DNA from: a virus
Direction: 5' to 3' (one strand)
IMG/VR virus record: IMGVR_UViG_3300032288_004815
Location: 1 to 64,000 of that record
DNA: 64,000 bases
The position numbers and the translations under genes were made by a program. Shown piece after piece: positions 15,262 to 63,206 of this stretch; within the stretch, counting starts at the first letter, position 1, and every line of letters begins with the position of its first letter. The notes below the pieces were generated by a model that was not told the origin of the DNA, did not search any database, and saw nothing but the letters and a program-made list of their open reading frames with translations.

Positions 15262-15275
15262 AACCAAAGTTTTAC

Positions 15276-15304
15276 TTGTCCAATAATTACAATTCTGCTA
15301 TAAT
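15276..15304 (+). promoter_or_regulatory. sigma70-type early promoter
   Basis: TTGTCC-N17-TATAAT with extended -10 TG. Confidence 0.6.
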
Positions 15305-15336
15305 AAAGCCTTTGTAACAACTTAAAGGTTATCGCC

Positions 15337-15988: not shown

Positions 15989-16012
15989 ACATATAAGGAG
16001 AACAATTTAAAA

Positions 16013-16231: not shown

Positions 16232-16239
16232 ATAATTGC

Positions 16240-16800: not shown

Positions 16801-16802
16801 TT

Positions 16803-17129
16803 ATGTTAACTATTAGTGAAAATGCAGTTAACAAAATTCGTGACTTGTTAGCTGAAGAAAACAATCCTCATTTAAAACTACGCACTTTTGTACAAGGTGG
16901 CGGCTGTTCAGGTATGCAGTATGGTTTTACTTTTGACGAAGAGCAGAATGAAGATGATTTTACTATAGAAGAAAATGGTGTTACTGTTTTAATAGACAGT
17001 GCTAGCATGATGTACTTAGACGGCGCCAGCATCGATTACAAAGAAGATGTCATGGGCAGCAGTTTTACTATCAATAATCCCAACGCAGAAACCACTTGCG
17101 GTTGCGGCAGCAGTTTTAGCCCTTATTAA
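16803..17129 (+). CDS. erpA: Fe-S cluster insertion protein (ErpA/IscA family)
   Basis: [25 protein letters not shown]. Confidence 0.92.
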
Positions 17130-41295: not shown

Positions 41296-41303
41296 ATATT
41301 TTT

Positions 41304-44286: not shown

Positions 44287-44312
44287 ATAATTTAAAATTC
44301 AAGGACTGCACT

Positions 44313-44477
44313 ATGGCCAAAATTCAAGAACAAAATATTGTAATTACCGTTAGTAAACTAGTCAAAAACGACCAAGCAGACAAGTTGGTAATTTCACAAG
44401 AAGTTGCAGATGCTCTGGCATCTGTAGCAGAAGAATTACTAGGCAACAGTGTTGTTGTCGAAGTTAACTTAGCATAA
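44313..44477 (+). CDS. Small hypothetical protein
   Basis: 54-aa MAKIQEQNIVITVSKLVK...; TAAATA plus AAGGA upstream. Confidence 0.6.
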   Translation: MAKIQEQNIVITVSKLVKNDQADKLVISQEVADALASVAEELLGNSVVVEVNLA

Positions 44478-44500
44478 TCAACCACTTAAGAAAGAAACTC

Positions 44501-45436
44501 ATGAGCGATTCAAACAAAACAGTCGAAGCTAAAGAAATTACCCCCACTGAAACTTCAACCCCAGTTCCTAAACTTACTAAAGCCATTATGCCTGTGCCTG
44601 ATTTGGCAAAAACTGCTCCTCAGATGCCACAAGGTAATCAATTTGATTTTAGTAAGGTACATGTACACTTTGCAGTACCCTGTTATGGCGGTATGGTCAG
44701 TGAACCTACTATGACCAGCTTCTTGCGTTTTACACTATTGGCACAGCGAGTAGGACTAAACTGGAGCTTGGACACTATGGTCAATGAATCATTGGTCACA
44801 AGAGCAAGAAATAACTTATGTGCTAAAATGATGACTAATGCGGCTGCTACACATTTTATGTTTATTGATGCTGATATTAGATTTGAACCCGAAGCTATTT
44901 TTGGCATGATTGCAGCAGACAAAGATGTTATTGGTGGTCTGTATCCTAAAAAATCATTACCCATTGACTATGTTATCAATTTGAAGAACGGTGGTCGCAT
45001 TGAGGGACCTATTTTCCAAGTAGACACACAGGGCACAGGTTTCTTATTGTTCAGAAAGTCAGTGTATGAACAGCTGATCAAGGCTCACCCAGAGTGCAAG
45101 TATGTAGACGACATTGGCCTGGGCAAGCAGTTTGAACCGTTTATGTACAGTATTTTTGACACTGTAATCGATGAGCGTGGTCACTATCTCAGCGAAGACT
45201 GGACTTTCTGTCGTCGCTGGCAGGCCATGGGCGGCGATATTTGGGCTGACAGCCGTGTGCTATTGAATCATATTGGACATTATGAATTCAAGGGTGATTT
45301 GGCAGCACTAGAGCGCAAAGGTCTCAAGCGAGTTGATGCTAACAGTCCTGAAGGCCAGGCTGCAATAGAAGCACAAAAGGCCGCAGCGCAAAAGGCACTG
45401 GGAACGGCCAAAGTGGCAGTAAATGAATCAGCCTAA
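44501..45436 (+). CDS. GT-A fold glycosyltransferase-like protein
   Basis: ESLVTRARN, FIDAD (DxD), GTGFLL, YLSEDWTFC, HIG. Confidence 0.8.
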   Translation: MSDSNKTVEAKEITPTETSTPVPKLTKAIMPVPDLAKTAPQMPQGNQFDFSKVHVHFAVPCYGGMVSEPTMTSFLRFTLLAQRVGLNWSLDTMVNESLVTRARNNLCAKMMTNAAATHFMFIDADIRFEPEAIFGMIAADKDVIGGLYPKKSLPIDYVINLKNGGRIEGPIFQVDTQGTGFLLFRKSVYEQLIKAHPECKYVDDIGLGKQFEPFMYSIFDTVIDERGHYLSEDWTFCRRWQAMGGDIWADSRVLLNHIGHYEFKGDLAALERKGLKRVDANSPEGQAAIEAQKAAAQKALGTAKVAVNESA

Positions 45437-45866
45437 GGAAACACTGAATTTTAAAATAACTTTAAGCGGCACTTACTGGGACAAAGTGCCTGCTTACAGT
45501 GTGTTGCTTGACTCAGTGTTATTTGCTCAAGGTTCAGCTACTAAAGAACCCATAACAGTTGAGTTTACAACTGATGTAGATGAAGACAAAGAACATATAC
45601 TGGAAATAAGACTAGAAAATAAAAAAAACAGTGACACTGTTGAAAATGAAAGTCAAACAGCAATTGTTAAAGATCTTTTGTTGAACATTGACAAGATTGA
45701 AATTGACGAAATAGACATTGCTGCACTTAAATGGTCAGCCAGTGAATTTATAGCAGACGACGCAGATAGACCCTTGCTGAAAAACTGTGTTAATTTAGGA
45801 TGGAATGGCAGCTATAAATTGAAGTTTTCAAGCCCATTTTATCTTTGGTTGTTAGAAAACATGTAA
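45423..45866 (+). CDS. Hypothetical beta-rich protein
   Basis: Ends GWNGSYKLKFSSPFYLWLLENM. Confidence 0.6.
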   Translation: MNQPKETLNFKITLSGTYWDKVPAYSVLLDSVLFAQGSATKEPITVEFTTDVDEDKEHILEIRLENKKNSDTVENESQTAIVKDLLLNIDKIEIDEIDIAALKWSASEFIADDADRPLLKNCVNLGWNGSYKLKFSSPFYLWLLENM

Positions 45867-45896: not shown

Positions 45897-47801
45897 ATGT
45901 TTGCACACGAATTATACGAACAAAACAAACCCCGTGTTATTGTAACTTATCCAGGCCGTTTTCAGCCTTTTCATCAAGGACACGCGGAAGTTTTTGCACA
46001 GTTACAAAAGAAATTTGGTGCAGACAATGTTTTTATTGTCACTAGCAATGATACCAGCAGTGCTAAAAGTCCTTTTAATTTTGCTGACAAGTATCAATTG
46101 ATCACAGCAGCAGGTATCGCTGGAAATCACATTGTTGAAGCTAACAAAATGTATGTGTTACCTGATGGCATTGATCCAGCAAACACTGTGTTTATCGCTG
46201 CTGTAGGCGGGCCGGATGCTGATAGACTGCGCCCAGACAGTGTAACCAAAAGAGATCAAAAGGACGAACAAGGTAATATAATTAAACCTGCAGGAAGTCC
46301 CGGTTATTACAAAACTTGGGGTATTGATCCAAAACCTGTAACAGCAGACAAGCACGGTTATGTTATTGTTATTCCCGAAGTTCGAAAATCAATAACAATA
46401 AAAGGCAAAGAATATGATGTAAGTCATGGCACCGAATGCCGTAATTTATGGAACGCAATTAGAAATGATCAAAAATCAAGACAAGAATTTTTAGGTCAAA
46501 TGTATCGAAGACCTAGCGCAGAAATTGCAGCTATTTACGATAAAATTCCACAGAGCGCCACTGAAGATATTGTAGGTGTAAGTTCAGACACCAGCAGTCC
46601 TATTCCAGGCAGATTAGAAGAAATGGGTGGAGTTGGTGTTATTGCTAGCAAACGACAGGCAAAAGATCCAAGATATAGTAACAGTCTTACAAAAGATGTT
46701 AGACCAGGTGCAATAGAAAAAAATCTCAAAGCTTTTAGATTAGCTGAAGACGAAGACAGCAATAAGCTTGCATTGGCTGCTTTAGACTTTTACAAGAACC
46801 AAGTAGGCAATATTCAAGCTCAGCCCGTTGACAACTATACTAATCAAGCTAAACAATTACTTGCTCGTGCAGATTCAGACATTAAGCCTAAAGTATTAGA
46901 CATTCTTAAAAAAGGACAAAAGAATCCTTATCTGCAAGGTGGCATTATTACCACTGTGGGTGCATTATTAGCCGGTGGCTTACTGGCCAGTGCCCAGCAA
47001 ATGAATTTAAATCCTACACAAACTAACATGTTGTTACAGGCTGTGTTAAACACAGTTATTCCAACAATGGTCAGTCGTGTCAATGGAAAAAGTTGGATAG
47101 ATACTATTAAATATACTTTGGCCAGTGCTGGCATCGGGACTGGCATTGCAGCAGTAACGGAACAACAACCCACACTGACTGGCAAATTGCCTATGGTTAC
47201 ACCACCTGGCCTAAAAAGTCCTCAACAACAGGCAGCAGCACAGTTAGGCCATGGCGAAGAAGAACTTGAAGAAAAATGGACAAAAAAATATAAACAAGCC
47301 ATCAACTGCAATAATCCCAAAGGTTTCAGCCAGCGAGCTCACTGTGCTGGTCGTCGTGCAAGACAAGCAGGTCATAGTACAAAAAGTAAATCTGTAAGTG
47401 AAGATCAAAATAACAGCATCAGTAAAGAAGAAATTATACAAATGCTGTCAGACTTTTTGCCAATGGCCGCAGAACAACTGAACCTTAAAAAATTACCGCA
47501 AATCATAATTCAAAAACATGTTGAAACACATGACGGTCAAGCAACTTTCGGTCGTTTTGTCAATGATGAAGTTAAAATATATATAAGCATAGCAGACAGG
47601 CACCCTGTAGACATACTGCGTACATTAGCTCATGAACTAGTACATTTTAAACAATTTATAGATGGAAAAATGTATCAGGGTGCAGGTGAAACTGGTACTC
47701 CTATTGAAAATCAAGCCAATGCAGTTGCTGGCATAATCATGCGTAACTTTAACAAAAAGTATCCAGATGCAGTAAAAAGTAAACCCTTGGAGTTGCAATG
47801 A
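45897..47801 (+). CDS. Mosaic protein: HIGH-type nucleotidyltransferase + short modules + C-terminal zincin-like domain
   Basis: YPGRFQPFHQGH; internal modules starting after L/V-x-E; RTLAHELVH (HExxH). Confidence 0.7.
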   Translation: MFAHELYEQNKPRVIVTYPGRFQPFHQGHAEVFAQLQKKFGADNVFIVTSNDTSSAKSPFNFADKYQLITAAGIAGNHIVEANKMYVLPDGIDPANTVFIAAVGGPDADRLRPDSVTKRDQKDEQGNIIKPAGSPGYYKTWGIDPKPVTADKHGYVIVIPEVRKSITIKGKEYDVSHGTECRNLWNAIRNDQKSRQEFLGQMYRRPSAEIAAIYDKIPQSATEDIVGVSSDTSSPIPGRLEEMGGVGVIASKRQAKDPRYSNSLTKDVRPGAIEKNLKAFRLAEDEDSNKLALAALDFYKNQVGNIQAQPVDNYTNQAKQLLARADSDIKPKVLDILKKGQKNPYLQGGIITTVGALLAGGLLASAQQMNLNPTQTNMLLQAVLNTVIPTMVSRVNGKSWIDTIKYTLASAGIGTGIAAVTEQQPTLTGKLPMVTPPGLKSPQQQAAAQLGHGEEELEEKWTKKYKQAINCNNPKGFSQRAHCAGRRARQAGHSTKSKSVSEDQNNSISKEEIIQMLSDFLPMAAEQLNLKKLPQIIIQKHVETHDGQATFGRFVNDEVKIYISIADRHPVDILRTLAHELVHFKQFIDGKMYQGAGETGTPIENQANAVAGIIMRNFNKKYPDAVKSKPLELQ

Positions 47802-48898
47802 GAGCTCGTGAATTTGTTAGAGTCCAGCCGCAAGGCACTTTGACTATATTTGATATAGACGATACACTGATGCATACCACTGCCAAGATTCGTGTAGTGC
47901 GTGATGGCAAAACTGTTAAAGAATTAACTAATCAGCAATTTAACAATTATCGACTCCAACCTGGTGAAGAATTTGATTTCGGTGAATTTAGAGACGCAGA
48001 AAAATTTGCTCAAGAAAGCACACCAATTAAACCAATGATTCGCGAACTCAAAGCTATACTAGCTTATACTCGTGGCCGTGTTATCATGTTGACTGCTAGG
48101 GCTGATTTTGATGATCGCGACACTTTTATTGACACTTTCCAACGATTAGGCATTGACATGAGTCGTGTGCATGTTCATCGTGCAGGCAATTTGCCTGGTA
48201 ATGAAAATCCTGCTTATAAAAAGGCAGTTTGGGTTCGTAGATACTTGGACACTGGCAAATATCGTCAGGTAAGTTTGTATGACGACAGCATGACCAATCT
48301 TCGTGTGTTTAAAGAACTGGCTGCAGAATATCCCCAAGTAACTTTTAATGCTTACTATATTGGGCCCAAAGGTGCTGCCACTGAAGTTGAAGAAGATTAT
48401 CATCCAAATGATACGCCTCCGGGTCCAGAATTTAAACCTACCATGCCCAAAGGAACAGTGAGAGTTGATGTGTCGGATGTGTATGACTGGTACAAACTAG
48501 GGCAGCATATCAGCAATTTAAAGGGACTAGGTCGCCATGACTTTGGACAAGGGCCGCCAAGCACTATTTTTTCTTTTGGCAGTGAAGATGAAGAACATGA
48601 GTATATCAAAGACCTTGAAAAAACAGGACTCACTACCACAGACATAGATCCAGTTGACCCCAATCAACCAAAAGGCATGAAGCGTCAAAAAACTGATCCC
48701 ACATACAATGTGGGCGAAAACTTTGCTGACGGCCGCAACCCTGGACGCAAAGGACTAAGCCAGCGTGTGGGAATTCCCAAAGGTGCTTCCATAGCACAAC
48801 TTGAAAAACTTAAGAACGCTGAAGGCGAACGAGGTCGTATGGCTCGCTGGCAATTGAACATGCGTCGAGGTAAAAATCGTGCAGGATCTAAGAATTGA
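47798..48898 (+). CDS. Mosaic protein: HAD phosphatase + two short modules
   Basis: IFDIDDTL, LTAR, K, YDDS..N; then VEE/DYHP.. and VGE/NFADG.. modules. Confidence 0.7.
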   Translation: MRAREFVRVQPQGTLTIFDIDDTLMHTTAKIRVVRDGKTVKELTNQQFNNYRLQPGEEFDFGEFRDAEKFAQESTPIKPMIRELKAILAYTRGRVIMLTARADFDDRDTFIDTFQRLGIDMSRVHVHRAGNLPGNENPAYKKAVWVRRYLDTGKYRQVSLYDDSMTNLRVFKELAAEYPQVTFNAYYIGPKGAATEVEEDYHPNDTPPGPEFKPTMPKGTVRVDVSDVYDWYKLGQHISNLKGLGRHDFGQGPPSTIFSFGSEDEEHEYIKDLEKTGLTTTDIDPVDPNQPKGMKRQKTDPTYNVGENFADGRNPGRKGLSQRVGIPKGASIAQLEKLKNAEGERGRMARWQLNMRRGKNRAGSKN

Positions 48899-49157
48899 AG
48901 TTGATGTCTATTGCAACTGGCAAACTGAGCCACAGGCCTATAGACTATACATAGACAACGATTTATACACTGAACGCACTTATATTTGGCGCAACCCTCA
49001 TCAGTGGGTGCGTGAAATACTGATAGCAGAACTGACCCCAGGTTCACACTCTATTACTTTGCAGCCTGTAAACAATCAATTCAATGGATTTACACTGGTA
49101 AACTTTGCTGTTGACAACAAGTTTCAAATGTTAGAAAATGGCAAGTTTACAATTTAA
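48879..49157 (+). CDS. Hypothetical beta-rich protein
   Basis: YRLYIDNDLYTERTYIW. Confidence 0.6.
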   Translation: MQDLRIEVDVYCNWQTEPQAYRLYIDNDLYTERTYIWRNPHQWVREILIAELTPGSHSITLQPVNNQFNGFTLVNFAVDNKFQMLENGKFTI

Positions 49158-49186
49158 ACTAAATATACAATATCTGGGATAAAAAT

Positions 49187-50077
49187 ATGAAAAGTTCACA
49201 ATTTTTAGGCGAAAATTTTGTTGAAGACGCACATTCAGTTCATCAAGATCACGAAGTACAAATGGCTCGTGAAGAATTATATCACTCAGCAGAATACGCA
49301 TTAAGATTACACAAGTTATTACGCAATGTTGATGAACAACAAGGTTTAGAAGGGTGGGTCAGCAGTAAAATTACATTGGCCAGCGACTATCTGAAAACTG
49401 TGTTGGAATACATGGAATACGAACTAATGACTGCGGCTAATCAGCAAACTATGTTACCTATAGCCGAAAATATGCAGCAAGGTGTGGCGGAAGGCTCCGA
49501 ACAAGATGATCGTTATAAAGGTATAACACCTGGAAATGGCAGGAGTGCCGCAAGAAATGCTCATAGATTAGGAAAAACTTATAATAATCCGCACAACCCT
49601 AAGTACCATAAAGCAGCACATGCGGAATGGGAAAAAGAGTATAACAACGAAATAGCACGCCTAAAGAAGAAAAGTGTGGCGGAAGACATGTCTCGAAGAG
49701 TAGCAATTGGACCCGATGGTCAAGTGACAGGAGGTTATCAACCAAGCACTTCTGGTGAACCTGTAGCAACTCAACCAAAAAGTCCTGAAGAAATTGAATT
49801 TGATAAAAAACAAGCAGACTGGCAAAAGCAAAAACAAGAAAATTTATATCAACAAAAATTAAACAATTACATGCGTGGTGATAATAGAGGCGCAGGCTTT
49901 GGTTTTCAACCGAGACCAGAAGATATAGAAAAAGCCAATGCAGCGAGATCAAAATTAGGGATAAACGAAATGTCTGCTGGCAGTGTTGCAACTGTAGTTA
50001 ATCCAACGCCCAAAAACAAAGCAAAAACAGGCACACTGTTTGGTGGTACTTATAAACAACCTAAGGCTAAAAAGTAA
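49187..50077 (+). CDS. Mosaic protein with two GVAE-type junctions
   Basis: DHEVQMAREELY..WVSSKITLASDYL module; QQGVAEG; KSVAED; INE/MSAGSVATV. Confidence 0.7.
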   Translation: MKSSQFLGENFVEDAHSVHQDHEVQMAREELYHSAEYALRLHKLLRNVDEQQGLEGWVSSKITLASDYLKTVLEYMEYELMTAANQQTMLPIAENMQQGVAEGSEQDDRYKGITPGNGRSAARNAHRLGKTYNNPHNPKYHKAAHAEWEKEYNNEIARLKKKSVAEDMSRRVAIGPDGQVTGGYQPSTSGEPVATQPKSPEEIEFDKKQADWQKQKQENLYQQKLNNYMRGDNRGAGFGFQPRPEDIEKANAARSKLGINEMSAGSVATVVNPTPKNKAKTGTLFGGTYKQPKAKK

Positions 50078-53000
50078 TGCAGGATAAAAATAATCAAGAT
50101 TTTAAAAAAAAATCTTTTAGTGATTATTTTAAAACTTTAGAATCCAGTCACGAGTTTACAAATGAGCAGGCAAGACCGAAGCCCAGCACAGTAGATCAAC
50201 CTAGACCGGGCACTGCACCAACTAGACCTTCACAACCAATACAGGGTCCAAGTCAAGTAAGACCTCCAGGAACAACAGCAGCACCTTCTACGGCTGTAGT
50301 TAGACCTGTACCTACTGCAACCGCACCTGCTCCAGCCGCTGCCCCAGCTGCCGCTGCACCAGCTGGTCAATCTACTAGCACTTTAGGTAGAATTGCTCAG
50401 TCTGTGGCACCTTATGTGGCCAGAGCTGGCGCAGCAATAACCGGTGCATTAACACCAGGTAATGTGGGTCAGCAATACGATTTTCCTCAACAGGGTCCAC
50501 TGCGAGGGTCTGAACTTAATCCGTTAACTAATAAACCGTGGACTAAACAAGAGTTAGACTTATACAAAGCTGATCCCACAAAGTTCCTAAGACCACCTCA
50601 GCAACAACCATCAGCTGATGTCAGAAGACCAGAGCTAGACGATCCATTAAGAAGACAGCCTGCAACTAGACCAGCTGCGCCACAATCTGTGCCTACTTCC
50701 AGTGCAGAAATTAAAGCATTGCAAGATAGATTAAGACAAGCAGGTGCAAATATTAGAACAGATGGAATAATGGGCCCACAAACACGACTGGCCATGCAAC
50801 AGTTTCCGCAAGCTGTTCAACCAGCAGTATCTCAACCTGCTGGATCAGCTACTAGTGCAAGAAGACCAGAACTAGATGATCCATTAAGAAGGCAACCAGT
50901 TAGGCAACCTGTAATTGAGCCAGAACAAAGAGCAGATGTCAGAAGACCAGAACTAGATGATCCATTAAGAAGGCAACCAGTTGCTGTACAAAGTCCAACA
51001 ACCGCAGTTTCTCAAGTAACAGTACCGTCAGACGGTATAGTCCCAACAGGATTACCTATGCCTAGGCCGCCTATAGTGAGACCAGGGCCGTTAACTCCAC
51101 AACCTCCGCCAGGCACACCTGTACCTCCTATTAAGCCTGTCCCTGGCACACCAATACCGCCAAGGCCCGTAGAACAACCAGTACCAGAGCCAAGACCACC
51201 AATAACACCTGTGCCTGGAACACCAATTCCCCCAAGACCGCAACCCGCTCCAGCACCCGCTCCAGCACCAGGTCCTGCACCAGCACCAAGGCCACCAATT
51301 CCTTTACCTGAGCCGGTTACACCTCCAGGACCTCCTACTAGGCCGCAACCAGCGCCGGCTCCTGCTCCAGCACCAAGACCAGAACCAGTAAAACCAACAG
51401 AACCGGTGCCAGCGGCGCCCAGTCCACCATCTGAGTCACCGCCACAAGCTCCTCCTGTGGCGCCACCTAGACCTCTTAGAGTTCCAACAGAAAGACCTGC
51501 AGAACAACCTGCTCCAGCACCTGCTCCGGCTCCAGCACCTGCAGGACCTAAACCACAACCTATGCCAACAGGAGAAACGCCTGCACCTGCTGCTCCTCCT
51601 GTGCCCCCTGCTCCACCAGCTCCACCACTTCCCCCTGAGCCAGGTCCTGTCCCTCCTATTAAGCCTGTACCTCCACCAGAACCAGGCCCGCCTCCTGCCA
51701 CACAACAACCGCCAGCATCTGCGCCCCCAGTTAGACCAGTGCCTGTACCTGTTACACCCGGTGAACCTGAACAGCGCAGAAATTTAGATTTTTGGCGCTG
51801 GGGCGGGCAAAAATCAGGGCCTCCAGGTGCTTATAGGTCTGACAAAGAAATGGGCTATAGAGAAAGTTTTGAACACATGACCGACATGCAGAAAAGCATT
51901 TACATAGTTGAATCTATGTCAAAAGCTGAACAAAAATCAACAGGACCAAAGTTTCCAGGTTATTGGAAAGGCACAGATCCTGCCAGTATGAGTCGCAATA
52001 GAATGGTGGGCGGCAGCGAACAACAGCAAGAAAATATACTCAGTGATTTAGAAAGCACAATGAAAAAAACTAGGACACTGAAACAGTTAAAAGAAAAATG
52101 GCAAAAATTTAAAGAAGGCGATGTAATTTCCTTTCCAAGTAGCTCCTCCAATGATCCCAAATTTAAAAATTTAAGTATAGTTCCCACTGAGCCTGCAACT
52201 GCCGGCACTACATCACCACCGTTGGCAGAACCATCAGGTGTTCAATCAGCAACTGGCAAACCCACAACAAGTTCTACAACTGGCCAATCGACTGTAAAAC
52301 CAGAGATGTCTGTGGGAGATCGATATAGACAAAATTTAGGAGCTGTGCCTAATACACAATCAAGTGCTGCTCAATCAAGTGCTGTTCAAACTACAGGGAA
52401 ACCTAGTAATGTTGTTGAATTACCTAAAAGCACAGTATCTACTTCTACCACAACAGGAGCGGCGCCTGCTCAATCCAGTAATGTTGTGCAGATGCCTAGA
52501 TCAGCCCCGGCTGCTGCCGGCTCTTCAATTTTAAAAGGTATTGGGCAAACTGCATCAAAAGTTCTCGGGCCATTGGGAGTAGTGGGATTGGCAACAAACG
52601 CAGCGGCCGTGGCAGATTATGTGCAAAGTCCTGAAGTAGATTTAGGCCGCAGACTAGCTTCTGGTGAAGGATCGGCAGCAGAAAAACACGCTGCCTGGCT
52701 TCAAAAAAGTACAAACATAAGTCAGTACACCCCAACAGCACAGGAAGCTGCAAATTTACTGGCCAGCGGTGATAAAAGAACCATTGATATCTTTGGTGGA
52801 CAAGATAAATTAAAGCAACTGGCGGGCACAACAAAAGCTGCTGAACCCAGTGCTGGTAGTGTAGATAAGATTGTACAAAAAGCCGTTGATGTTGTAAATC
52901 CAAAACAATATCAATACAATCAATTGACTCCAGCGCAACTTGAATACATAAAAAAACGATATGCTGAAGCAGGACAAGGCGCAGGTAGTGATGCACAAAG

Positions 53001-54456
53001 AGTAATTTCAAATGCATTAGACTTTAATAACTTACCAGCAAATAACAGAGAAGCAATTTTTAAATCTTTAGAAGATCCTCGCATTAAACAAGAAATTCAA
53101 CAGTTAGAAAAATCAATGCCACAAAGACCTGGAAGCATAACTAGCACGCAGCCAGGAGCTAAACCATATGGCAACACTGTATTGGATGTAACAGATTCCA
53201 ATTCTGTGGCTGAATACAATAGAATAATTGGTGGTAGGGAGGGAGGAGCAAAAGGATATGATGCTGCATTTATAGCTCCAGGTTATAAAACTCCTGAACA
53301 ATGGTCTAAACAAACATTGGGAGTAGCAAAGAAATTATCTGACATGACATTAGATGAAGTTTTGCGATATCAAAAATTCAGAGGACCTCAGGACAATGCA
53401 GCTGGCAAATATGGTATGGTGCAAAGCACAGTGTTTGGAGAACTTAGAAACGGCAAATTTACCGGTTTAATAAATGATTTGGGAATAACTCCAGAAAATC
53501 TAAAAAGTCAAAAGTTTAGTTCTGATTTTCAAGAACGCCTCCAAGCTGCATTATTCCAAAGACAACAGGCTTCACTTCGACAAAATGGATTAGAATTAAC
53601 TCCTGCAAACCTATATGGATCACATAGTATAGGTGCTGGAGGTCATGCTCAGGTAATGCAAGCAGCAAAAACACAACCCAATACACCAGTAGTTGAAATA
53701 TTAGCTAATAATGCAGCAACAGCTAGAAATTTACAACCAGGATCTCGAGCATACAATGAATTTGTTAAGAAGCACAGCGAGTTTCTAACTAAAAGAAATC
53801 CACACCTACTTACTCCAGCAGGACAGTGGTATAATAGAATGGTGCAGATAGTTGATAATAAAACTGCGGTAAGGGAAACAAGAATGACAAACAAAAAAGA
53901 TGTGGCTGACAGATATAGTTTTGATGAGTTTGACGATTTAGTAAGAAGATTAGGTCAACGGGCTAAAGAACAAGAACGCCGATATGGTCCGGTGGATATC
54001 AAACAATTAGCACAAAGACTGCGCGACATTGCCGACAAGGATGACAAGCCTATCAAAGAACAAGACCCGGCAACTGATCCCACTCGTCAGTCAACTTCAC
54101 CAACTTTACAGGCTACTAGTGCCAACCAACAGGACACTAATCCAAATCAACAGATCACAAGCCAGACTGGCACTAGTCAAGAGCGTAAAGAAAAACAAGC
54201 ACAAGCACAAGACACTGCCACTGCTAAAACCATGGCCAGTAGTTTGACCACAGTTGTTCCTCCTGGAACTAACACAAACGCATTGGCGCAGGCCATAGTA
54301 AATACAAATGACGGTAGACCTTTAAGTGCCGACCAACAAAAAGCTATCAGTGTATTACAACCATTGGTTTTAAAAGCAGCAGAAACTCCAACAACTGCTA
54401 GCGCATTAGGTAGTGCTTTGCAAAAAGCTGGTATGTTAAGTAAACAAGGAAAATAA
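50077..54456 (+). CDS. Large Pro-rich mosaic protein with peptidoglycan-binding and lysozyme-like domains
   Basis: IKALQDRL..DGIMGPQTRLAM (PG-binding); about 240-aa Pro tract; REGG..YDA..LSDMTLDEV..AAGKY (lysozyme-like). Confidence 0.7.
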   Translation: MQDKNNQDFKKKSFSDYFKTLESSHEFTNEQARPKPSTVDQPRPGTAPTRPSQPIQGPSQVRPPGTTAAPSTAVVRPVPTATAPAPAAAPAAAAPAGQSTSTLGRIAQSVAPYVARAGAAITGALTPGNVGQQYDFPQQGPLRGSELNPLTNKPWTKQELDLYKADPTKFLRPPQQQPSADVRRPELDDPLRRQPATRPAAPQSVPTSSAEIKALQDRLRQAGANIRTDGIMGPQTRLAMQQFPQAVQPAVSQPAGSATSARRPELDDPLRRQPVRQPVIEPEQRADVRRPELDDPLRRQPVAVQSPTTAVSQVTVPSDGIVPTGLPMPRPPIVRPGPLTPQPPPGTPVPPIKPVPGTPIPPRPVEQPVPEPRPPITPVPGTPIPPRPQPAPAPAPAPGPAPAPRPPIPLPEPVTPPGPPTRPQPAPAPAPAPRPEPVKPTEPVPAAPSPPSESPPQAPPVAPPRPLRVPTERPAEQPAPAPAPAPAPAGPKPQPMPTGETPAPAAPPVPPAPPAPPLPPEPGPVPPIKPVPPPEPGPPPATQQPPASAPPVRPVPVPVTPGEPEQRRNLDFWRWGGQKSGPPGAYRSDKEMGYRESFEHMTDMQKSIYIVESMSKAEQKSTGPKFPGYWKGTDPASMSRNRMVGGSEQQQENILSDLESTMKKTRTLKQLKEKWQKFKEGDVISFPSSSSNDPKFKNLSIVPTEPATAGTTSPPLAEPSGVQSATGKPTTSSTTGQSTVKPEMSVGDRYRQNLGAVPNTQSSAAQSSAVQTTGKPSNVVELPKSTVSTSTTTGAAPAQSSNVVQMPRSAPAAAGSSILKGIGQTASKVLGPLGVVGLATNAAAVADYVQSPEVDLGRRLASGEGSAAEKHAAWLQKSTNISQYTPTAQEAANLLASGDKRTIDIFGGQDKLKQLAGTTKAAEPSAGSVDKIVQKAVDVVNPKQYQYNQLTPAQLEYIKKRYAEAGQGAGSDAQRVISNALDFNNLPANNREAIFKSLEDPRIKQEIQQLEKSMPQRPGSITSTQPGAKPYGNTVLDVTDSNSVAEYNRIIGGREGGAKGYDAAFIAPGYKTPEQWSKQTLGVAKKLSDMTLDEVLRYQKFRGPQDNAAGKYGMVQSTVFGELRNGKFTGLINDLGITPENLKSQKFSSDFQERLQAALFQRQQASLRQNGLELTPANLYGSHSIGAGGHAQVMQAAKTQPNTPVVEILANNAATARNLQPGSRAYNEFVKKHSEFLTKRNPHLLTPAGQWYNRMVQIVDNKTAVRETRMTNKKDVADRYSFDEFDDLVRRLGQRAKEQERRYGPVDIKQLAQRLRDIADKDDKPIKEQDPATDPTRQSTSPTLQATSANQQDTNPNQQITSQTGTSQERKEKQAQAQDTATAKTMASSLTTVVPPGTNTNALAQAIVNTNDGRPLSADQQKAISVLQPLVLKAAETPTTASALGSALQKAGMLSKQGK
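50623..50982 (+). repeat. Three copies of RRPELDDPLRRQP (about 42 bp)
   Basis: At 50623, 50860, 50941; last two identical over 42 bp. Confidence 0.9.
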
Positions 54457-54460
54457 AATT

Positions 54461-56416
54461 ATGTTTCTCTCGGATTTATACAATAAAAGAAATGTAAATG
54501 AAAACATAAGTCCCATTGATTTGGCAGAACTGTTGTTTAATGCAGTGCTGAAAAACTTTCCTGAAGCAATCACTCGCTATGGTCACGAAGTAGTAGGTGA
54601 TGCTGTGTTAGATTATGCCGAAGAAGCCACAGATTTGCGTAGCATGAGTGACATTGATATTGCTGCACAAGAAATATTAGACGACTTAGCAAACTATCAA
54701 GGAGATCGTACTAACGAACTAGAACCTGAAAAAAATAATGCTATTTCTGAAAATCTACGCAAATGGTTCAAAGAAAAATGGGTTCGTTTTGGTCCTGATG
54801 GTAAGATACGGGGAGCTTGTGCAAGGGGCGACGACAGCGAAGGCAAACCAAAGTGTTTACCACAAAGTAAAGCCCATGCATTAGGTAAAGCAGGTCGTGC
54901 CAGTGCAGCGGCAAGAAAACGCAGACAAGATCCAAATCCTGAACGCAGTGGTGCAGCTATCAATGTTGCCACTAAAAAGAAATCAAACGAAGGTGTGGCG
55001 GAGGGCTTCAGTGTAGTAAAAAGTGACTATGACTTAGATCAGATGGTGCTGACTTTTGACATTGAAGGTCCGCGTAAAGGCAAACCTTTACAGTTCACCT
55101 ACTGGGACTATGACGAAGATTTCGCCAACGCTGAACGCCGAGATGTGTTCGATCAACTGCAACAACAATCCTGGTATGCGGGTCTGGATCATCCTACCAA
55201 GATGGAAATACTTGATGCATCATACAAGGCTATCAGAGGTGAAGAACCCAGCGAATACAAACCTACAGTAGATGATGAACCTTTGGACGAACAAGGTGTG
55301 TCGGAAGGCTCTCTAGATGAACTACATGCTGACATGTCAAATGTATATAATAAACTTGCTCCCGGAATTGAAAAATACAAAGATAAATCTGGTGCCGATA
55401 AATTATATCAATCATTATTTTCAGTGGCACAACAACACGGTGCTAGCGCCATATTTGAATTCAAAAGAATGTTAAATAACGCCAGAAATAGTGCTCATAT
55501 GGACTATGATACTAATCCCGGTGGGTTCGAAAATTGGTTCTGGTATTTGCCATTCGCAGATGACGAGCAAGGTGTAGCAGAAGGCTTACAGCAGACTTTA
55601 CGCAAGATTGTCCCTGGATATGCCAAGCGTGAGATTGATAAAAAGATGGACACTGGAAAGTTTGGTAAGACTGATGCAGATAAAGATGCAAACTTCTATC
55701 GTTATAAAAAGATCCAAGACAAGATCAAAGGGCAAGGTATAGTGGAAGAAAAATGTCCACATTGTGGTGGCCCTTCCTTTAACAATTTAATTTTAGCAGA
55801 AAAACAGGATGCTTGTTATCACAAGGTAAAAAGTAGATACAAAGTATGGCCCAGTGCTTACGCTAGTGGTGCATTGGTTCAGTGTCGCAAAAAAGGTGCA
55901 GCCAATTGGGGCAAAAAGAAAACCAATGAGACTAAACAGCCGAGCTTGGATTCAGACACAGTTAAAAGATTACAAAATTACCTTAATATTAAGTTTGGAG
56001 CAAATTTAGATGTAGATGGCGTATTAGGCAATCTTACAAAAAAATCTATCAAGAAATTTATGAAAAAAACAAAAACTAAACTTGCTCCTGAGCCAGATAG
56101 AACCACCGCAGTACAGGGTAAGACAAAAAAAGTAAATGAAACAAGATTTTATTTTTATCCAAAAGCCACAGATGCCAGCACACTGGTCAACGAGTTTAAG
56201 TTAACCAAAGACAACCAAGGTTGGTACTTAACTGAATCACAAGGACCTGCAGCAGTGCTAGAAGCACAACGAGCATTTGGTATTCCAAAAATCAAAGAAG
56301 TCAAATTAAAAGAATTTAATCTGGCAGCTTTCAGTGGCAGTGCTGCAATTAAAGGCGATGACAATGTACTAAGTCCCATTGGCAGCAAGGCATTGAAAGG
56401 TCGTAAACATGCGTAA
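54461..56416 (+). CDS. Mosaic polyprotein-like ORF with four GVAEG-type junctions and a PG-binding-like module
   Basis: EGVAEG, QGVSEG, QGVAEG, QGIVEE; WFKEKWV..KPKCLP; DACYHKVKSRYKVWPSAYASGALVQCRK; VKRLQNYL..LDVDGVLG. Confidence 0.7.
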   Translation: MFLSDLYNKRNVNENISPIDLAELLFNAVLKNFPEAITRYGHEVVGDAVLDYAEEATDLRSMSDIDIAAQEILDDLANYQGDRTNELEPEKNNAISENLRKWFKEKWVRFGPDGKIRGACARGDDSEGKPKCLPQSKAHALGKAGRASAAARKRRQDPNPERSGAAINVATKKKSNEGVAEGFSVVKSDYDLDQMVLTFDIEGPRKGKPLQFTYWDYDEDFANAERRDVFDQLQQQSWYAGLDHPTKMEILDASYKAIRGEEPSEYKPTVDDEPLDEQGVSEGSLDELHADMSNVYNKLAPGIEKYKDKSGADKLYQSLFSVAQQHGASAIFEFKRMLNNARNSAHMDYDTNPGGFENWFWYLPFADDEQGVAEGLQQTLRKIVPGYAKREIDKKMDTGKFGKTDADKDANFYRYKKIQDKIKGQGIVEEKCPHCGGPSFNNLILAEKQDACYHKVKSRYKVWPSAYASGALVQCRKKGAANWGKKKTNETKQPSLDSDTVKRLQNYLNIKFGANLDVDGVLGNLTKKSIKKFMKKTKTKLAPEPDRTTAVQGKTKKVNETRFYFYPKATDASTLVNEFKLTKDNQGWYLTESQGPAAVLEAQRAFGIPKIKEVKLKEFNLAAFSGSAAIKGDDNVLSPIGSKALKGRKHA

Positions 56417-56837
56417 CTTTATTAATATCATGGAGGCAGCAGCAAAAAACTGTCCTGTGGCCACACACAACATTGATGTTAATCTTAAAAATAGGCAAAA
56501 AGCTATAGATTCTTATCATTATGGTCCAGCTAATCCCGACAAACCCGACAACTACTGGCGGCAAGCAGCTAAAAGATTCAAAGTTTCTGAAGCAGTGGCC
56601 AAGACCATGCAGTGCGCTAACTGTGCAGCTTTTGATGTCAGTGACAGTATGCGTGAATGCATTGCCAGCGGTATTCGTGGCAGCGAAACAAACATTGATG
56701 CTAATGCTAGTATAAATATTGCAGACATAGGCTATTGTAATTTCCTGCATTTCAAATGTGCAGGAGCAAGAAGTTGTGCTGCATGGATCACCGGCGGACC
56801 AATTACAGAAAAAGACAAAAATAAAAAGGCAGCATAA
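56409..56837 (+). CDS. Cys-rich hypothetical protein
   Basis: YGPANP, CANCAAF, GYC..HFKC..RSC.AW. Confidence 0.65.
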   Translation: MRNFINIMEAAAKNCPVATHNIDVNLKNRQKAIDSYHYGPANPDKPDNYWRQAAKRFKVSEAVAKTMQCANCAAFDVSDSMRECIASGIRGSETNIDANASINIADIGYCNFLHFKCAGARSCAAWITGGPITEKDKNKKAA

Positions 56838-56838
56838 A

Positions 56839-57273
56839 ATGGAAGAATTAATTAAAGCTACGAAAATAGGATTCAGCAGTACTTTTAGTTTTTATTTAAA
56901 AGCACACTACTTTCACTGGAATGTTGAAGGATCTGACTTTTTAGAATATCATGAGTTGTTTGGTAAAATCTACGAAGAAGTATATGGCAGCATCGATGAT
57001 TTTGCCGAAAATATTCGTAAACTAGGCAGCTATACTCCTGGCAGTTACACAAGACTCAGTATGCTTAGTCAAATTGAAGATGAAACAGCAGTGCTGCCCA
57101 AAGATGCCATGGTAACTGAATTATTGGCAGACAATGATAAAATTCTTAAAATCATTAAACTTGTCTATGATTTAGCCGAACGCGAAGGACAACACGGGCT
57201 CAGCAACTTTTTAGCCGAGAGGCTAGATGCACATCAAAAGCATGGTTGGATGCTAAGAGCCAGTCTTAAATAA
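56839..57273 (+). CDS. dps: Dps ferritin-like DNA-protection protein
   Basis: HYFHWNVEG..F..YHELF..IYEE..IDDFAENIR; HQKHGWML. Confidence 0.92.
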   Translation: MEELIKATKIGFSSTFSFYLKAHYFHWNVEGSDFLEYHELFGKIYEEVYGSIDDFAENIRKLGSYTPGSYTRLSMLSQIEDETAVLPKDAMVTELLADNDKILKIIKLVYDLAEREGQHGLSNFLAERLDAHQKHGWMLRASLK

Positions 57274-57276
57274 TTG

Positions 57277-58392
57277 ATGAAAGACTATTACTGTAGTGCA
57301 ATAGACACAGGTCTATTTGTGTCTGTCAACGGCGGCGTGGGTCTATGTTGTAGCGGCGACGGTTTTTTTGGTTCTGTAAGACAGCAACCAATACAGGAAA
57401 TTTTTACCGCGAATAAATTTACACAACTACAACAAGACCTGCATACAGGGCAGTCGAATGATTATTGCAAAGGTTGTTATAAAATTGAAAATACTGCTCC
57501 AGGCAGTAGTCAATGGTCTGCATTCAACGACCAATTTCAAAGGCAAACACAAAGACAACTTAAACTTATAGATATTCGCTGGAGCAATGTTTGTAATTTG
57601 ACCTGTAGATACTGTAACACACATGACAGCAGTGAATGGCGAAAAATAAGAAATTTACCCATCGAGTCAGTGAATAGGGATTATACAGAGTCGTTGTTTG
57701 ACTTAGTTGAAGAAAATTTACACAGTATAGAAGTTGTTTATCTATTAGGCGGAGAACCTCTGTTACAAAAACACAATATAAGATTATTAGACATGCTGCC
57801 CAAACATGTTAAGATTGATATATTAACCAACGGCAGTGTTGATTTGATAAACAACAAAGTATATGAAAAACTAACTGAATTTAAAAATACTTATTGGAAT
57901 TTAAGTTTCGATAATGTTGCCGATAGGTTTGAATATGTGCGAGCAGGCAGCAATTGGAATTTGCTGTGCAATAATATCAATATACTCAAACAAGACTTTA
58001 CAGCTAACAATGTAACTTTTCATCCTGTTTACAGTATTTTTAATGCCACAAGACTTAAAGAATTATATGACTTTTCAGACAGGTGCGGCAGTTTAAGAAT
58101 TAATTGGCAACTGGCTTTAGCCACTGTCGATCCTTATAATTTACCCACTGACAGTTTTTTAATTTTTGGACACAATCGTGAAATAATTAATTTGGCCTTG
58201 GAAGAAATTGATCAGTTAGATTTTGATGATTATTTCTTAAGCGGTGTTAAAACCAGTTTACAAGACAACATTACAGATCCCACAAAATCTCAAAAATTTT
58301 TAAATTGGATAGATCAAATGGAGCAAACAATTGTTCCAAAATATAGTTTCCAAGCACTGTGGCCTGAATTAAATACATTATTGAACAAATAA
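57277..58392 (+). CDS. Radical SAM protein
   Basis: YC..CC..CKGC N-terminal cluster; CNLTCRYC; LGGEP; TNG. Confidence 0.88.
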   Translation: MKDYYCSAIDTGLFVSVNGGVGLCCSGDGFFGSVRQQPIQEIFTANKFTQLQQDLHTGQSNDYCKGCYKIENTAPGSSQWSAFNDQFQRQTQRQLKLIDIRWSNVCNLTCRYCNTHDSSEWRKIRNLPIESVNRDYTESLFDLVEENLHSIEVVYLLGGEPLLQKHNIRLLDMLPKHVKIDILTNGSVDLINNKVYEKLTEFKNTYWNLSFDNVADRFEYVRAGSNWNLLCNNINILKQDFTANNVTFHPVYSIFNATRLKELYDFSDRCGSLRINWQLALATVDPYNLPTDSFLIFGHNREIINLALEEIDQLDFDDYFLSGVKTSLQDNITDPTKSQKFLNWIDQMEQTIVPKYSFQALWPELNTLLNK

Positions 58393-58427
58393 ACCTTGGC
58401 CTTAGGACCGGGTGGGCGGCTACTGCC

Positions 58428-58456
58428 TTGACTTATGCGATTCGCTACCGTATAAT
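58428..58456 (+). promoter_or_regulatory. sigma70-type promoter match inside a GC-rich structured intergenic segment
   Basis: TTGACT-N17-TATAAT. Confidence 0.6.
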
Positions 58457-58489
58457 CTAGAGTGTAGCACATTTCAATTAGGAGATTCC

Positions 58490-58756
58490 ATGACAGACTA
58501 CAATCGCAGCTTCAACGGTGAAGCTAAAATTAAACTTACCCAACTTATTAACGAAGGCATGCAAGTAATGGCCGAAGTCGACGATTTAAACGCAGGACTC
58601 AATGACACCATCAAAGCCATTGCCGAAGAACTAGAAATAAAACCTGCAACTCTTAAAAAAGCAATTAAAATTGCACACAAAGCCAAATTAGGCGAGACTA
58701 ATCGCGATCACGATGAGCTGAATACTATTTTAGAAACTGTAGGAAAAACTTTGTGA
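58490..58756 (+). CDS. Small helical dsDNA-binding protein (T4 DsbA/GapR-like)
   Basis: AGGAG SD; DTIKAIAEELEIKPATLKKAIKIAHK. Confidence 0.6.
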   Translation: MTDYNRSFNGEAKIKLTQLINEGMQVMAEVDDLNAGLNDTIKAIAEELEIKPATLKKAIKIAHKAKLGETNRDHDELNTILETVGKTL

Positions 58757-58842
58757 CAAACATTGTTGTGTGTTTTCCGGGCGGAGCAAGCGGGCATTTT
58801 ATAGCAAATTTATGTAGCTTGTTATTATTTAATATTAAATAA
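58753..58842 (+). pseudogene. ORF truncated at the palindrome axis
   Basis: GTGA-coupled start, MTNIVVCFPGGASGHFIANLCSLLLFN then mirror-derived IK*; N-terminus resembles that of 30036 ORF. Confidence 0.65.
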
Positions 58843-61258: not shown

Positions 61259-63206
61259 GTTTACGACCTTTCAATGCCTTGCTGCCAATGGGACTTAGTA
61301 CATTGTCATCGCCTTTAATTGCAGCACTGCCACTGAAAGCTGCCAGATTAAATTCTTTTAATTTGACTTCTTTGATTTTTGGAATACCAAATGCTCGTTG
61401 TGCTTCTAGCACTGCTGCAGGTCCTTGTGATTCAGTTAAGTACCAACCTTGGTTGTCTTTGGTTAACTTAAACTCGTTGACCAGTGTGCTGGCATCTGTG
61501 GCTTTTGGATAAAAATAAAATCTTGTTTCATTTACTTTTTTTGTCTTACCCTGTACTGCGGTGGTTCTATCTGGCTCAGGAGCAAGTTTAGTTTTTGTTT
61601 TTTTCATAAATTTCTTGATAGATTTTTTTGTAAGATTGCCTAATACGCCATCTACATCTAAATTTGCTCCAAACTTAATATTAAGGTAATTTTGTAATCT
61701 TTTAACTGTGTCTGAATCCAAGCTCGGCTGTTTAGTCTCATTGGTTTTCTTTTTGCCCCAATTGGCTGCACCTTTTTTGCGACACTGAACCAATGCACCA
61801 CTAGCGTAAGCACTGGGCCATACTTTGTATCTACTTTTTACCTTGTGATAACAAGCATCCTGTTTTTCTGCTAAAATTAAATTGTTAAAGGAAGGGCCAC
61901 CACAATGTGGACATTTTTCTTCCACTATACCTTGCCCTTTGATCTTGTCTTGGATCTTTTTATAACGATAGAAGTTTGCATCTTTATCTGCATCAGTCTT
62001 ACCAAACTTTCCAGTGTCCATCTTTTTATCAATCTCACGCTTGGCATATCCAGGGACAATCTTGCGTAAAGTCTGCTGTAAGCCTTCTGCTACACCTTGC
62101 TCGTCATCTGCGAATGGCAAATACCAGAACCAATTTTCGAACCCACCGGGATTAGTATCATAGTCCATATGAGCACTATTTCTGGCGTTATTTAACATTC
62201 TTTTGAATTCAAATATGGCGCTAGCACCGTGTTGTTGTGCCACTGAAAATAATGATTGATATAATTTATCGGCACCAGATTTATCTTTGTATTTTTCAAT
62301 TCCGGGAGCAAGTTTATTATATACATTTGACATGTCAGCATGTAGTTCATCTAGAGAGCCTTCCGACACACCTTGTTCGTCCAAAGGTTCATCATCTACT
62401 GTAGGTTTGTATTCGCTGGGTTCTTCACCTCTGATAGCCTTGTATGATGCATCAAGTATTTCCATCTTGGTAGGATGATCCAGACCCGCATACCAGGATT
62501 GTTGTTGCAGTTGATCGAACACATCTCGGCGTTCAGCGTTGGCGAAATCTTCGTCATAGTCCCAGTAGGTGAACTGTAAAGGTTTGCCTTTACGCGGACC
62601 TTCAATGTCAAAAGTCAGCACCATCTGATCTAAGTCATAGTCACTTTTTACTACACTGAAGCCCTCCGCCACACCTTCGTTTGATTTCTTTTTAGTGGCA
62701 ACATTGATAGCTGCACCACTGCGTTCAGGATTTGGATCTTGTCTGCGTTTTCTTGCCGCTGCACTGGCACGACCTGCTTTACCTAATGCATGGGCTTTAC
62801 TTTGTGGTAAACACTTTGGTTTGCCTTCGCTGTCGTCGCCCCTTGCACAAGCTCCCCGTATCTTACCATCAGGACCAAAACGAACCCATTTTTCTTTGAA
62901 CCATTTGCGTAGATTTTCAGAAATAGCATTATTTTTTTCAGGTTCTAGTTCGTTAGTACGATCTCCTTGATAGTTTGCTAAGTCGTCTAATATTTCTTGT
63001 GCAGCAATATCAATGTCACTCATGCTACGCAAATCTGTGGCTTCTTCGGCATAATCTAACACAGCATCACCTACTACTTCGTGACCATAGCGAGTGATTG
63101 CTTCAGGAAAGTTTTTCAGCACTGCATTAAACAACAGTTCTGCCAAATCAATGGGACTTATGTTTTCATTTACATTTCTTTTATTGTATAAATCCGAGAG
63201 AAACAT
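61251..63206 (-). CDS. Mirror copy of 54461-56416
   Basis: Identical translation. Confidence 0.45.
   Translation of the reverse strand: MFLSDLYNKRNVNENISPIDLAELLFNAVLKNFPEAITRYGHEVVGDAVLDYAEEATDLRSMSDIDIAAQEILDDLANYQGDRTNELEPEKNNAISENLRKWFKEKWVRFGPDGKIRGACARGDDSEGKPKCLPQSKAHALGKAGRASAAARKRRQDPNPERSGAAINVATKKKSNEGVAEGFSVVKSDYDLDQMVLTFDIEGPRKGKPLQFTYWDYDEDFANAERRDVFDQLQQQSWYAGLDHPTKMEILDASYKAIRGEEPSEYKPTVDDEPLDEQGVSEGSLDELHADMSNVYNKLAPGIEKYKDKSGADKLYQSLFSVAQQHGASAIFEFKRMLNNARNSAHMDYDTNPGGFENWFWYLPFADDEQGVAEGLQQTLRKIVPGYAKREIDKKMDTGKFGKTDADKDANFYRYKKIQDKIKGQGIVEEKCPHCGGPSFNNLILAEKQDACYHKVKSRYKVWPSAYASGALVQCRKKGAANWGKKKTNETKQPSLDSDTVKRLQNYLNIKFGANLDVDGVLGNLTKKSIKKFMKKTKTKLAPEPDRTTAVQGKTKKVNETRFYFYPKATDASTLVNEFKLTKDNQGWYLTESQGPAAVLEAQRAFGIPKIKEVKLKEFNLAAFSGSAAIKGDDNVLSPIGSKALKGRKHA

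Follow-up and report, generated by a model that had tools for sequence, protein, structure and literature searches.

The stretch of DNA under study, positions 1 to 64,000 of the viral record IMGVR_UViG_3300032288_004815 (the window, 64,000 nucleotides (nt) in length), contains two open reading frames (ORFs), ORF 49187-50077 and ORF 54461-56416, in which a short repeated sequence recurs in frame between unrelated protein segments (Table 1). This repeat, hereafter referred to as the joint, is 18 nt long with a 16-nt core, AAGGTGTGGCGGAAGG, and encodes the peptide x-G-V-A-E-G; two copies are carried by the first ORF and four by the second. The original prediction, made from the letters of the window, had placed six copies in a single codon phase; its coordinates are correct, all copies being on the plus strand, and the intervening stretches of 58, 95, 86 and 49 codons show no mutual relationship, as it had stated, the lowest E between any two of them being 0.088 (BLASTP, word size 2). 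Scanning the window for the core with up to three mismatches, with the chance level taken from 100 shuffles, returned eight matches against 0.18 expected, a number that none of the shuffles reached. Five of these matches are unique (49479, 0 mismatches; 49671, 2; 54990, 1; 55293, 1; 55569, 2), the other three (62083-62677, minus strand) being duplicates produced by the fold-back of the record described below. The copy at 55733 (GQGIVEE) has four mismatches to the core by our own count, and was accepted as a decayed joint because the relatives P0028, P0030, P0038 and P0113 show QGVAEEKCP at this junction, ahead of the same Zn-ribbon module.

Table 1. Joints, cassettes and surrounding genes in the window, in coordinates of the 64,000-nt stretch (aa, amino acids).
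Feature	Position	Strand	Description
Two upstream neighbours with leader-like N-termini	45897..48898	+	634 aa + 366 aa; syntenic and of variable length in contigs L132-L151
Putative cargo gene 1	49187..50077	+	296 aa: cassette A followed by a second variable stretch, between conserved N and C-terminal modules
Joint copy 1	49478..49495	+	caaggtgtggcggaaggc (QGVAEG), identical to the 16-nt core; borders cassette A on the left
Cassette A	49496..49669	+	58 aa; recurs in an unrelated gene of contig L137
Joint copy 2	49670..49687	+	aaaagtgtggcggaagac (KSVAED), 2 mismatches, partly decayed; right edge of the X10 deletion and of the replacements
Proline-rich neighbour	50077..54456	+	1459 aa, peptidoglycan (PG)-binding-like stretch, no joint copy
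Putative cargo gene 2	54461..56416	+	651 aa: N and WFKEKW modules, M2, M3, M4, C-terminal DUF5872 Zn-ribbon and PG-binding-like stretch
Joint copy 3	54989..55006	+	gaaggtgtggcggagggc (EGVAEG), 1 mismatch; end of homology with P0002 and P0026
Cassette M2	55007..55291	+	95 aa; 4 near-full-length homologues
Joint copy 4	55292..55309	+	caaggtgtgtcggaaggc (QGVSEG), 1 mismatch; contigs of run X2 break there
Cassette M3	55310..55567	+	86 aa, predicted helical with a predicted local distance difference test (pLDDT) score >90 in the AlphaFold 2 (AF2) model; 22 homologues
Joint copy 5	55568..55585	+	caaggtgtagcagaaggc (QGVAEG), 2 mismatches, both silent G>A changes; left edge of the X10 M4 replacement
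Cassette M4	55586..55732	+	49 aa; 7 homologues, 78-88% identity, differing neighbours
Joint copy 6	55733..55750	+	caaggtatagtggaagaa (QGIVEE), decayed; right edge of the X10 M4 replacement
Fold-back duplicates of copies 3-6	61937..62698	-	Not independent

Bases 1-58833 of the record are the exact reverse complement of bases 58834-117666 (0 mismatches over 58,833 bp), the palindrome being centred at 58833/58834, and IMG/VR classes the record under 'inverted terminal repeats'. This fold-back is most likely an assembly or amplification artefact. Since the record folds back perfectly, the window beyond 58833 merely repeats 53667-58833; with the fold-back taken as an artefact, the true unique sequence amounts to 58.8 kb and the CheckV completeness of the doubled record (33%) is inflated. 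This unique part is a piece of a large phage; its products include DNA ligase, clamp loader, PhoH, a ClpA-like ATPase, endolysin, a spanin-like protein, tail-fibre-like proteins, three radical SAM enzymes and many host-like genes.

Whole modules have been deleted, inserted and replaced between copies of the joint, within one gene as well as between genes and phages. The locus is syntenic in 20 viral contigs (L132-L151), in which the orthologues of ORF 49187 range from 123 to 663 aa, share their N- and C-terminal modules and differ in the middle. When these orthologues are aligned, the cassette differences start and end in the motif, as had been anticipated, and the further expectation that one cassette would turn up in different host genes was borne out by cassette A, which also lies in an unrelated 376-aa gene of L137 (80%, tblastn). 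The DNA alignment between these two occurrences begins with CAAGGTGTGGC and ends with AGTGTGGCGGAAG, the sequence beyond being unrelated. The 5' variant AGT GTG GCG GAA accompanies cassette A in L137 too, and 3' variants of the joint (GVAE-E before the QLD, KCP and WSQ modules) accompany the downstream module. Joint variants thus travel with the adjoining cassettes, and therefore crossovers fall inside the core. As a separate observation, the C-terminal module AGSVATVVNP...LFGGTY, which follows [LIV]-x-E, ends all ORF 49187 orthologues in L132-L149 regardless of what precedes it, and possibly serves as a further targeting or anchoring element at the C-terminus.

The same events are visible between near-identical genomes in nature. 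Positions 49000-56500 are present, in part, in 20 runs of 13 freshwater metagenome studies, and Logan contigs from four studies (X2, X5, X10 and X11) were aligned to this stretch, parts of which are uncovered in X11. Because these contigs are built from 31-letter words, the 18-nt repeat alone cannot give false joins. An X10 contig joins 49481 to 49674, skipping 192 letters and losing cassette A, with 12 letters common to both sides and flanks about 99% alike (6/482 and 2/474 differences). Replacement occurs in the same place: an X2 contig follows 49000-49497 with 0 differences (498 nt), continues with 460 foreign letters and resumes at 49664, and X5 has a third cassette after 49497, the first residues of which are those found after a joint in P0044. 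In the other gene, M4 is replaced by 209 other letters between joint copies 5 and 6 in an X10 contig. Further contigs end loosely behind 55002 (copy 3, X11), behind 55307 and 55309 (copy 4, X2) and behind 55583 (copy 5, X5), so that each of the six joint copies has a breakpoint in at least one run; joint copies hold 8 of the 24 loose ends listed, 77 further ones lying outside this list. The idea of the repeat as a cassette boundary at which exchange takes place is therefore supported by wild genomes that delete or replace cassettes between its copies. The joins 49495>55286 and 49497>54578, with sides of only 20-21 letters, were set aside as unreliable, as were 54613>54746 (side 36) and 51287>51511 (side 22).

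Homologues of the individual cassettes in other proteins are delimited in a similar way. All four M2 homologues have GVAE as their downstream bound and GVAE, GVSE or SVAE upstream, and those of M4 are joint-bounded on both sides (six GVAE and one SVAE upstream, six GVAE and one GMAE downstream), whereas the M3 homologues reside mostly in proteins without GVAEG. When 232 motif-bearing proteins were surveyed, 281 internal cassettes with a median length of 78 aa were counted, which fall into 200 families, and in families of at least five members the distinct neighbours are mostly about as many as the members. It had also been suggested that M2 is richer in C-ending codons than M3 and that the two differ in origin; the excess itself is weakly borne out (C at third codon positions 0.24 vs 0.19; GC content at third codon positions, GC3, 0.41 vs 0.29), and with 95 and 86 codons the difference in composition is too weak to use.

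Beyond the window, a scan of related viral contigs, as originally proposed, found the motif to be common and associated with proteins of mosaic structure. The relatives of ORF 54461 number more than 7757, vary greatly in length and share pieces only, most of them with a coverage of 12-34% at 75-90% identity, and the motif in a loose form occurs in 62 of its best 120 relatives (152 copies in 85,209 residues, up to seven per protein). When E-Q-G-V-A-E-G was searched for in viral contigs with any base allowed at the third positions, at least 120 stretches were retrieved; in 111 of the 120 listed the match is surrounded by an open frame of at least 150 aa, often with more copies. Five large viral records carry 3-8 joint copies each, clustered in 1-3 genes. 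In bacterial genomes (one per species) the exact 18-mer is essentially absent: it matched 56 stretches, 41 of them at GC ≥0.6 and unrelated, where equal base use would give about 17 by chance (own arithmetic), and the sole array-like low-GC bacterial contig is L200, with four copies. Among cultured phages, the tblastn matches of ORF 54461 were confined to its DUF5872 stretch, in 365 cyanomyophage records of which none reached 80% query coverage, and tblastn with ORF 49187 found no match; the cyanophage homologues in MC09 and S-SSM7 keep both shared modules, and GVAEG was not found in them. The phage literature searched, with supplements and subscription journals outside the search, gave no description of the joint, the string GVAEG occurring only in non-phage papers.

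Between unrelated modules, the joint is an identical stretch of 12-18 nt (core GGTGTGGCGGAA inside AAGGTGTGGCGGAAGG) in one phase, and its conservation extends to silent positions. We compared the codons of 249 non-identical copies from viral contigs with the background of the same frames: GGT is used in 94% vs 41%, GTG in 88% vs 18%, GCG in 86% vs 9%, GAA in 90% vs 76% and GGC in 75% vs 33%. This codon lock is not seen in seven copies from frames of GC3 >0.60, probably unrelated chance occurrences, which were retained in the totals, and it is strongest in the most AT-rich frames (GC3 <0.30: GTG 94%, GCG 94%, n=93). The suspicion of constraint at the DNA level is therefore upheld, silent positions being about 90% fixed, on rare codons in the case of GTG and GCG; the premise that CG-ending codons are uncommon also holds in the window, where GCG makes up 7% of Ala, TCG 4% of Ser and GTG 21% of Val codons (60 ORFs). 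The residue before the motif, in 124 copies not selected for E-Q, is Q in 50%, E in 24% and K in 17%, and its codon ends in AA in 94% of them; a few letters beyond the core, on either side, conservation drops to background. Two controls were applied. Within the conserved modules of these loci, invariant G, V and A residues are spelled with varying codons (GCG 0-26%, GTG 0-33%), and the conserved [IV]-A-E that closes the ORF 49187 N module, which is not a site of exchange, is spelled with GCA in 5, GCT in 3, GCC in 2 and GCG in 0 of 10 orthologues. As both controls are unlocked, the lock comes neither from the shared ancestry of the modules nor from the need for the peptide. Across 1.44 Mb of loci, 449 of the 454 core matches with up to three mismatches (about 11 expected by chance, own arithmetic) fall in the same codon phase and on the coding strand, 438 of the in-phase matches sit in frames of at least 150 aa, and neither these loci nor the 58.8 kb of the window contain intergenic or antisense copies of the core.

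It might be argued that the copies are simply young duplicates of one linker, whose spelling persists without function, and the silent-site variation among them, mostly G>A decay as if drifting from a founder spelling, would suit this view. Nonetheless, more than 100 contigs share the spelling, in 249 non-identical copies whose flanks are unrelated or saturated at silent sites, as do 200 unrelated cassette families, and the conservation stops sharply at the core edges; descent alone is thus very improbable as an explanation. A signal acting on RNA or translation, such as pausing at the rare GTG-GCG pair or a Shine-Dalgarno-like AAGG/GGAAGG, assisting the folding or cutting of modules one after another, with recombination as a by-product, would account for the two locked codons that are rare, for the restriction of all copies to the coding strand and one phase and for the purine-rich AGG stretches of the core. 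Yet the locked GGT and GAA are the commonest codons, no signal of local RNA structure was obtained (114 copies of the joint, mean z = -0.44, 9% below -2), the conserved IAE site outside the exchange points is unlocked and no RNA run is among those holding the stretch, so that we regard such a signal as improbable. We rather envisage that each exchange would copy the core, that cassettes with intact cores would spread and that the copies would later decay through G>A changes.

As for the machinery behind the exchange, no integrase or resolvase was found in the scanned ORFs of the window or in the five motif-bearing records (878 kb), in agreement with the absence of a visible recombinase noted originally for the window; the dedicated insertion machinery implied by the prediction of an insertion site is therefore not supported. 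The families PF00589 and PF00239 matched none of the five records, all incomplete and one 81% complete, whereas controls matched in 14 and 12 genomes. Given that no tyrosine or serine recombinase was found in these five records and that three of them have a RecA/UvsX-type gene, exchange would proceed by general phage recombination of the UvsX/RecA type on short homology rather than by a dedicated recombinase, as has been suggested for the PeSL cassettes and the glycine-rich gp38 motifs of T4-type phages described below. A nuclease, recombinase or template-switching enzyme that recognises the 16-mer has to be weighed against this. Its attraction lies in a lock that runs without a gap through some 16 letters, the AA of the preceding codon among them whatever its residue, much like a recognition site, in the precision of the exchange, in the shortness of 12-18 nt for general recombination and in the presence in the window of an HNH endonuclease with NUMOD3. 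HNH homing endonucleases are, nevertheless, common in T4-type phages and none is tied to the motif; moreover, the core is not self-complementary and hence forms no palindromic site, antisense and intergenic copies are absent as stated above, and no circle-type back-joint at the motif was found in the contigs of four runs, contigs being a form of assembly that drops rare forms. We therefore hold such an enzyme to be unlikely, and the same doubt applies to the fuller picture that would follow from it, an intragenic 'integron' whose dedicated machinery acts on the 16-nt core by nuclease-primed or template-switching exchange and assembles and re-deals a combinatorial set of head-delivered effectors, with protein modules as cassettes and with the same six codons serving as a cut site. 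The joint does resemble integron gene cassettes as an array of exchangeable cassettes with a recurring site between them, but it lacks an integrase (in the five records) and a palindromic attC-like site, and its cassettes are in-frame modules, not genes. The NUMOD3-bearing HNH gene is free-standing (28923-29450) and has a radical SAM gene on one side and an uncharacterised ORF on the other; in the related record G001 (300 kb) an HNH-type endonuclease gene (locus L124, 2633-3379) directly follows the gp23 capsid gene.

The second function predicted for the joint, a prohead-protease site, is plausible on the evidence of sequence comparisons. The T4 protease gp21 cleaves after Glu in L/I-X-E and the capsid targeting leader of IPIII has 10 residues and is processed at residues 8 and 10 (PMC9026906). 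Among 453 copies gathered by DNA similarity, changes are fewest at the T of GTG (1) and at the first two letters of GAA (6 in the G, 1 in the A), so that P3 remains hydrophobic (V, M or L) and P1 remains Glu; P1 is altered in 7 of these copies, whereas P4, P2 and P1' are altered in 8-25%. Junctions outside the motif keep the same signature: the 22 M3 homologues all have [VLMF]-x-E at the upstream junction, and an [LIV]-x-E lies no more than four residues from their downstream junction, and [LIV]-x-E precedes the C-terminal module in 13 of 13 ORF 49187 orthologues. Homologues of gp21 (PF03420) and gp23 (PF07068) occur in T4 order in 4 of the 5 large motif-bearing records, three of which, in addition, encode a protein orthologous to the N module of ORF 49187 (47-61% identity). 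Leader-like N-termini are present in most of the best 120 relatives of ORF 54461, and a pattern drawn up post hoc, M-x(2-4)-[DEQ]-[FLIM]-[FLIVY], fits 4 of the 6 ORFs of the cluster 45897-56416 vs 2 of the 54 others, with a leader Glu at residue 8 (ORF 45897), 9 (ORF 49187) and 14 (ORF 54461).

The joint could also be a recombination joint and flexible linker that stays uncleaved, its products being intact 'polyvalent' multi-domain proteins, a class of phages and conjugative elements described as having 2 to 15 domains and deployed by phages in host conflicts (PMC5512222). The AF2 model of ORF 54461 (mean pLDDT 65.6) predicts folded blocks with low-confidence segments between them, and these segments contain or touch all four joints of this ORF, copy 3 falling within a weakly supported helix, a placement that would be expected of any linker; a Foldseek search of this model against the PDB returned 93 rows at E ≤10, all of them weak and none at E ≤0.001. 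The Val at P3, instead of the L/I of the T4 rule, also suits an uncleaved linker. On the other hand, such a linker would not call for Glu in 446 of 453 copies, with a hydrophobic residue two places earlier, among variable neighbours, nor for [VLMF]-x-E at the same junctions of relatives without the motif, and the leader-like N-termini together with gp21 in related records fit processing. This simpler reading, exchange without cleavage, is in our judgement rather unlikely.

We therefore favour, with moderate confidence, the interpretation of the joint as a dual-coded element, both a swap joint and a gp21-type cleavage site, in head-cargo polyproteins of uncultured freshwater giant T4-type phages. 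According to this model, a short N-terminal leader would bring the polyproteins into the prohead, a gp21-type prohead protease would cut after the Glu of V-A-E-G and thereby free small modules, and these would stay in the head and enter the host alongside the DNA. Several points weigh against it. The capsid propeptide sites in related records are LLE and ILE, not VAE, and P3 of the joint is Val where the T4 rule has Leu/Ile. Neither gp21 nor gp23 was found in the record itself or in five syntenic records, which are 17-45% complete fragments, and the gp21 link hence rests on the more distant records that bear orthologues. The leader of ORF 47798 has no Glu, ORF 50077 lies outside the leader pattern, and [LIV]-x-E is a common tripeptide, so that counts alone prove little. 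With regard to exchange, 16 of the 24 listed loose ends lie elsewhere, mostly in widely shared modules and proline-rich repeats, and 12-18 nt of homology fall far short of the length usually quoted for efficient homologous recombination, which makes a helper enzyme possible. Finally, the cassette-level selection invoked behind the codon lock of about 90% is an argument rather than a result.

Features of this model are known separately from T4-type phages. The T4 internal proteins IPI-III and Alt are diverse and fast-evolving, have in common only a short conserved N-terminal leader, are packaged into the prohead, cleaved after a Glu in an L/I-X-E context and delivered together with the DNA (PMC9026906, PMC3012670); the relatives considered here come from phages that encode gp21 and gp23 homologues as well. 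However, those are single small proteins cut once or twice, whereas the joint proteins, whose packaging and cleavage are predicted, combine unrelated modules with up to seven joints and have Val at P3 and a fixed DNA spelling. PeSL cassettes of T4-type phages are non-essential, have short conserved flanks and no integrase, invoke the phage's own recombination machinery and have been shown to form mini-circles (PMC2839356); as with the joint, close relatives differ by insertion, deletion or replacement between repeats. In contrast to PeSLs, which are intergenic, comprise an early promoter and a stem-loop terminator and move whole genes (PMC2839356), the joint is 16-18 nt long, lies in frame (449/454 in one phase), has neither promoter nor stem-loop and moves protein modules. 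In the gp38 adhesin of T-even phages, conserved glycine-rich motifs part hypervariable segments and chimeras arise at or near the motifs (PMC3157838), so that in-frame conserved motifs within one gene act there too as recombination points. Unlike the five different gp38 motifs, which keep a fixed order and form the structural core of one domain with the segments as loops (PMC3157838), the joint is one and the same element throughout, modules may follow one another in any number and order, and each module is a fold of its own. By analogy, the joint may be seen as an in-frame counterpart of PeSL cassettes and gp38 chimeras, joined to a T4-type processing site.

The gene order around the locus is conserved in L132-L151: a DnaJ-like gene, a ClpA-like gene and three conserved genes, the variable cargo run, and then a ferritin-like and a radical SAM gene. 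The DnaJ-like gene, the 764-aa ClpA-like ATPase, which is 44% identical to jumbo phage homologues (Phosso, Atu_ph07 and PA5oct), and the three small conserved genes (40465-45866 in the window) are always ahead of the cargo genes; always behind these come the ferritin/Dps-like gene and a radical SAM gene with SPASM domain. ORF 45897-47801 has an N-terminal cytidylyltransferase-like domain with a leader-like start and a C-terminal HExxH (HELVHF), its orthologues ranging from 491 to 903 aa, and in cyanophage MC09 the DUF5872 gene also adjoins a cytidylyltransferase. The 366-aa product of ORF 47798 is phosphatase/polynucleotide kinase-like. The proline-rich ORF 50077-54456 contains three copies of RRPELDDPLRRQP and varies in frame in metagenome contigs, with 15 nt omitted at 50335 and CCAGCA added at 51249 and 51531. 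The T4 late promoter, whose consensus is TATAAATA, gave 5 matches vs 6.2 expected, none of them ahead of the cluster. Elsewhere in the window, a run of host-like genes (3441-17129) comprises an RF-1 domain protein, PsiE, a short-chain dehydrogenase, a metallophosphoesterase, an S11 D-Ala-D-Ala carboxypeptidase, a MazG-like protein, a Bax1-I family member, an Fe/Mn superoxide dismutase and an IscA-like Fe-S protein; the phage also carries a Gram-negative porin (7629-8615; PF13609, E = 8e-44) and, beyond this run, a Cpn10-like gene at 23250. The 171-aa ORF 22493-23008 matches only a piece of the NTPase domain of DNA polymerase III alpha (PF07733, positions 16-94 of 260) and is possibly a split or broken gene.

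If the favoured interpretation is true, these phages would possess a natural system resembling exon shuffling, in which one sequence is read twice, as DNA homology for re-dealing modules in frame and as a peptide for their release by the head protease. This would explain the large, fast-changing stock of small proteins that giant aquatic phages deliver together with their DNA, the 200 cassette families of the 232 proteins being likely aimed at host defences, and it would be a rare instance in which something other than translation fixes silent positions of a coding sequence. The old idea that modular phage evolution is driven by conserved linkers at the borders of modules becomes directly testable, and the joint could be used as a tag to mine cargo modules from metagenomes.

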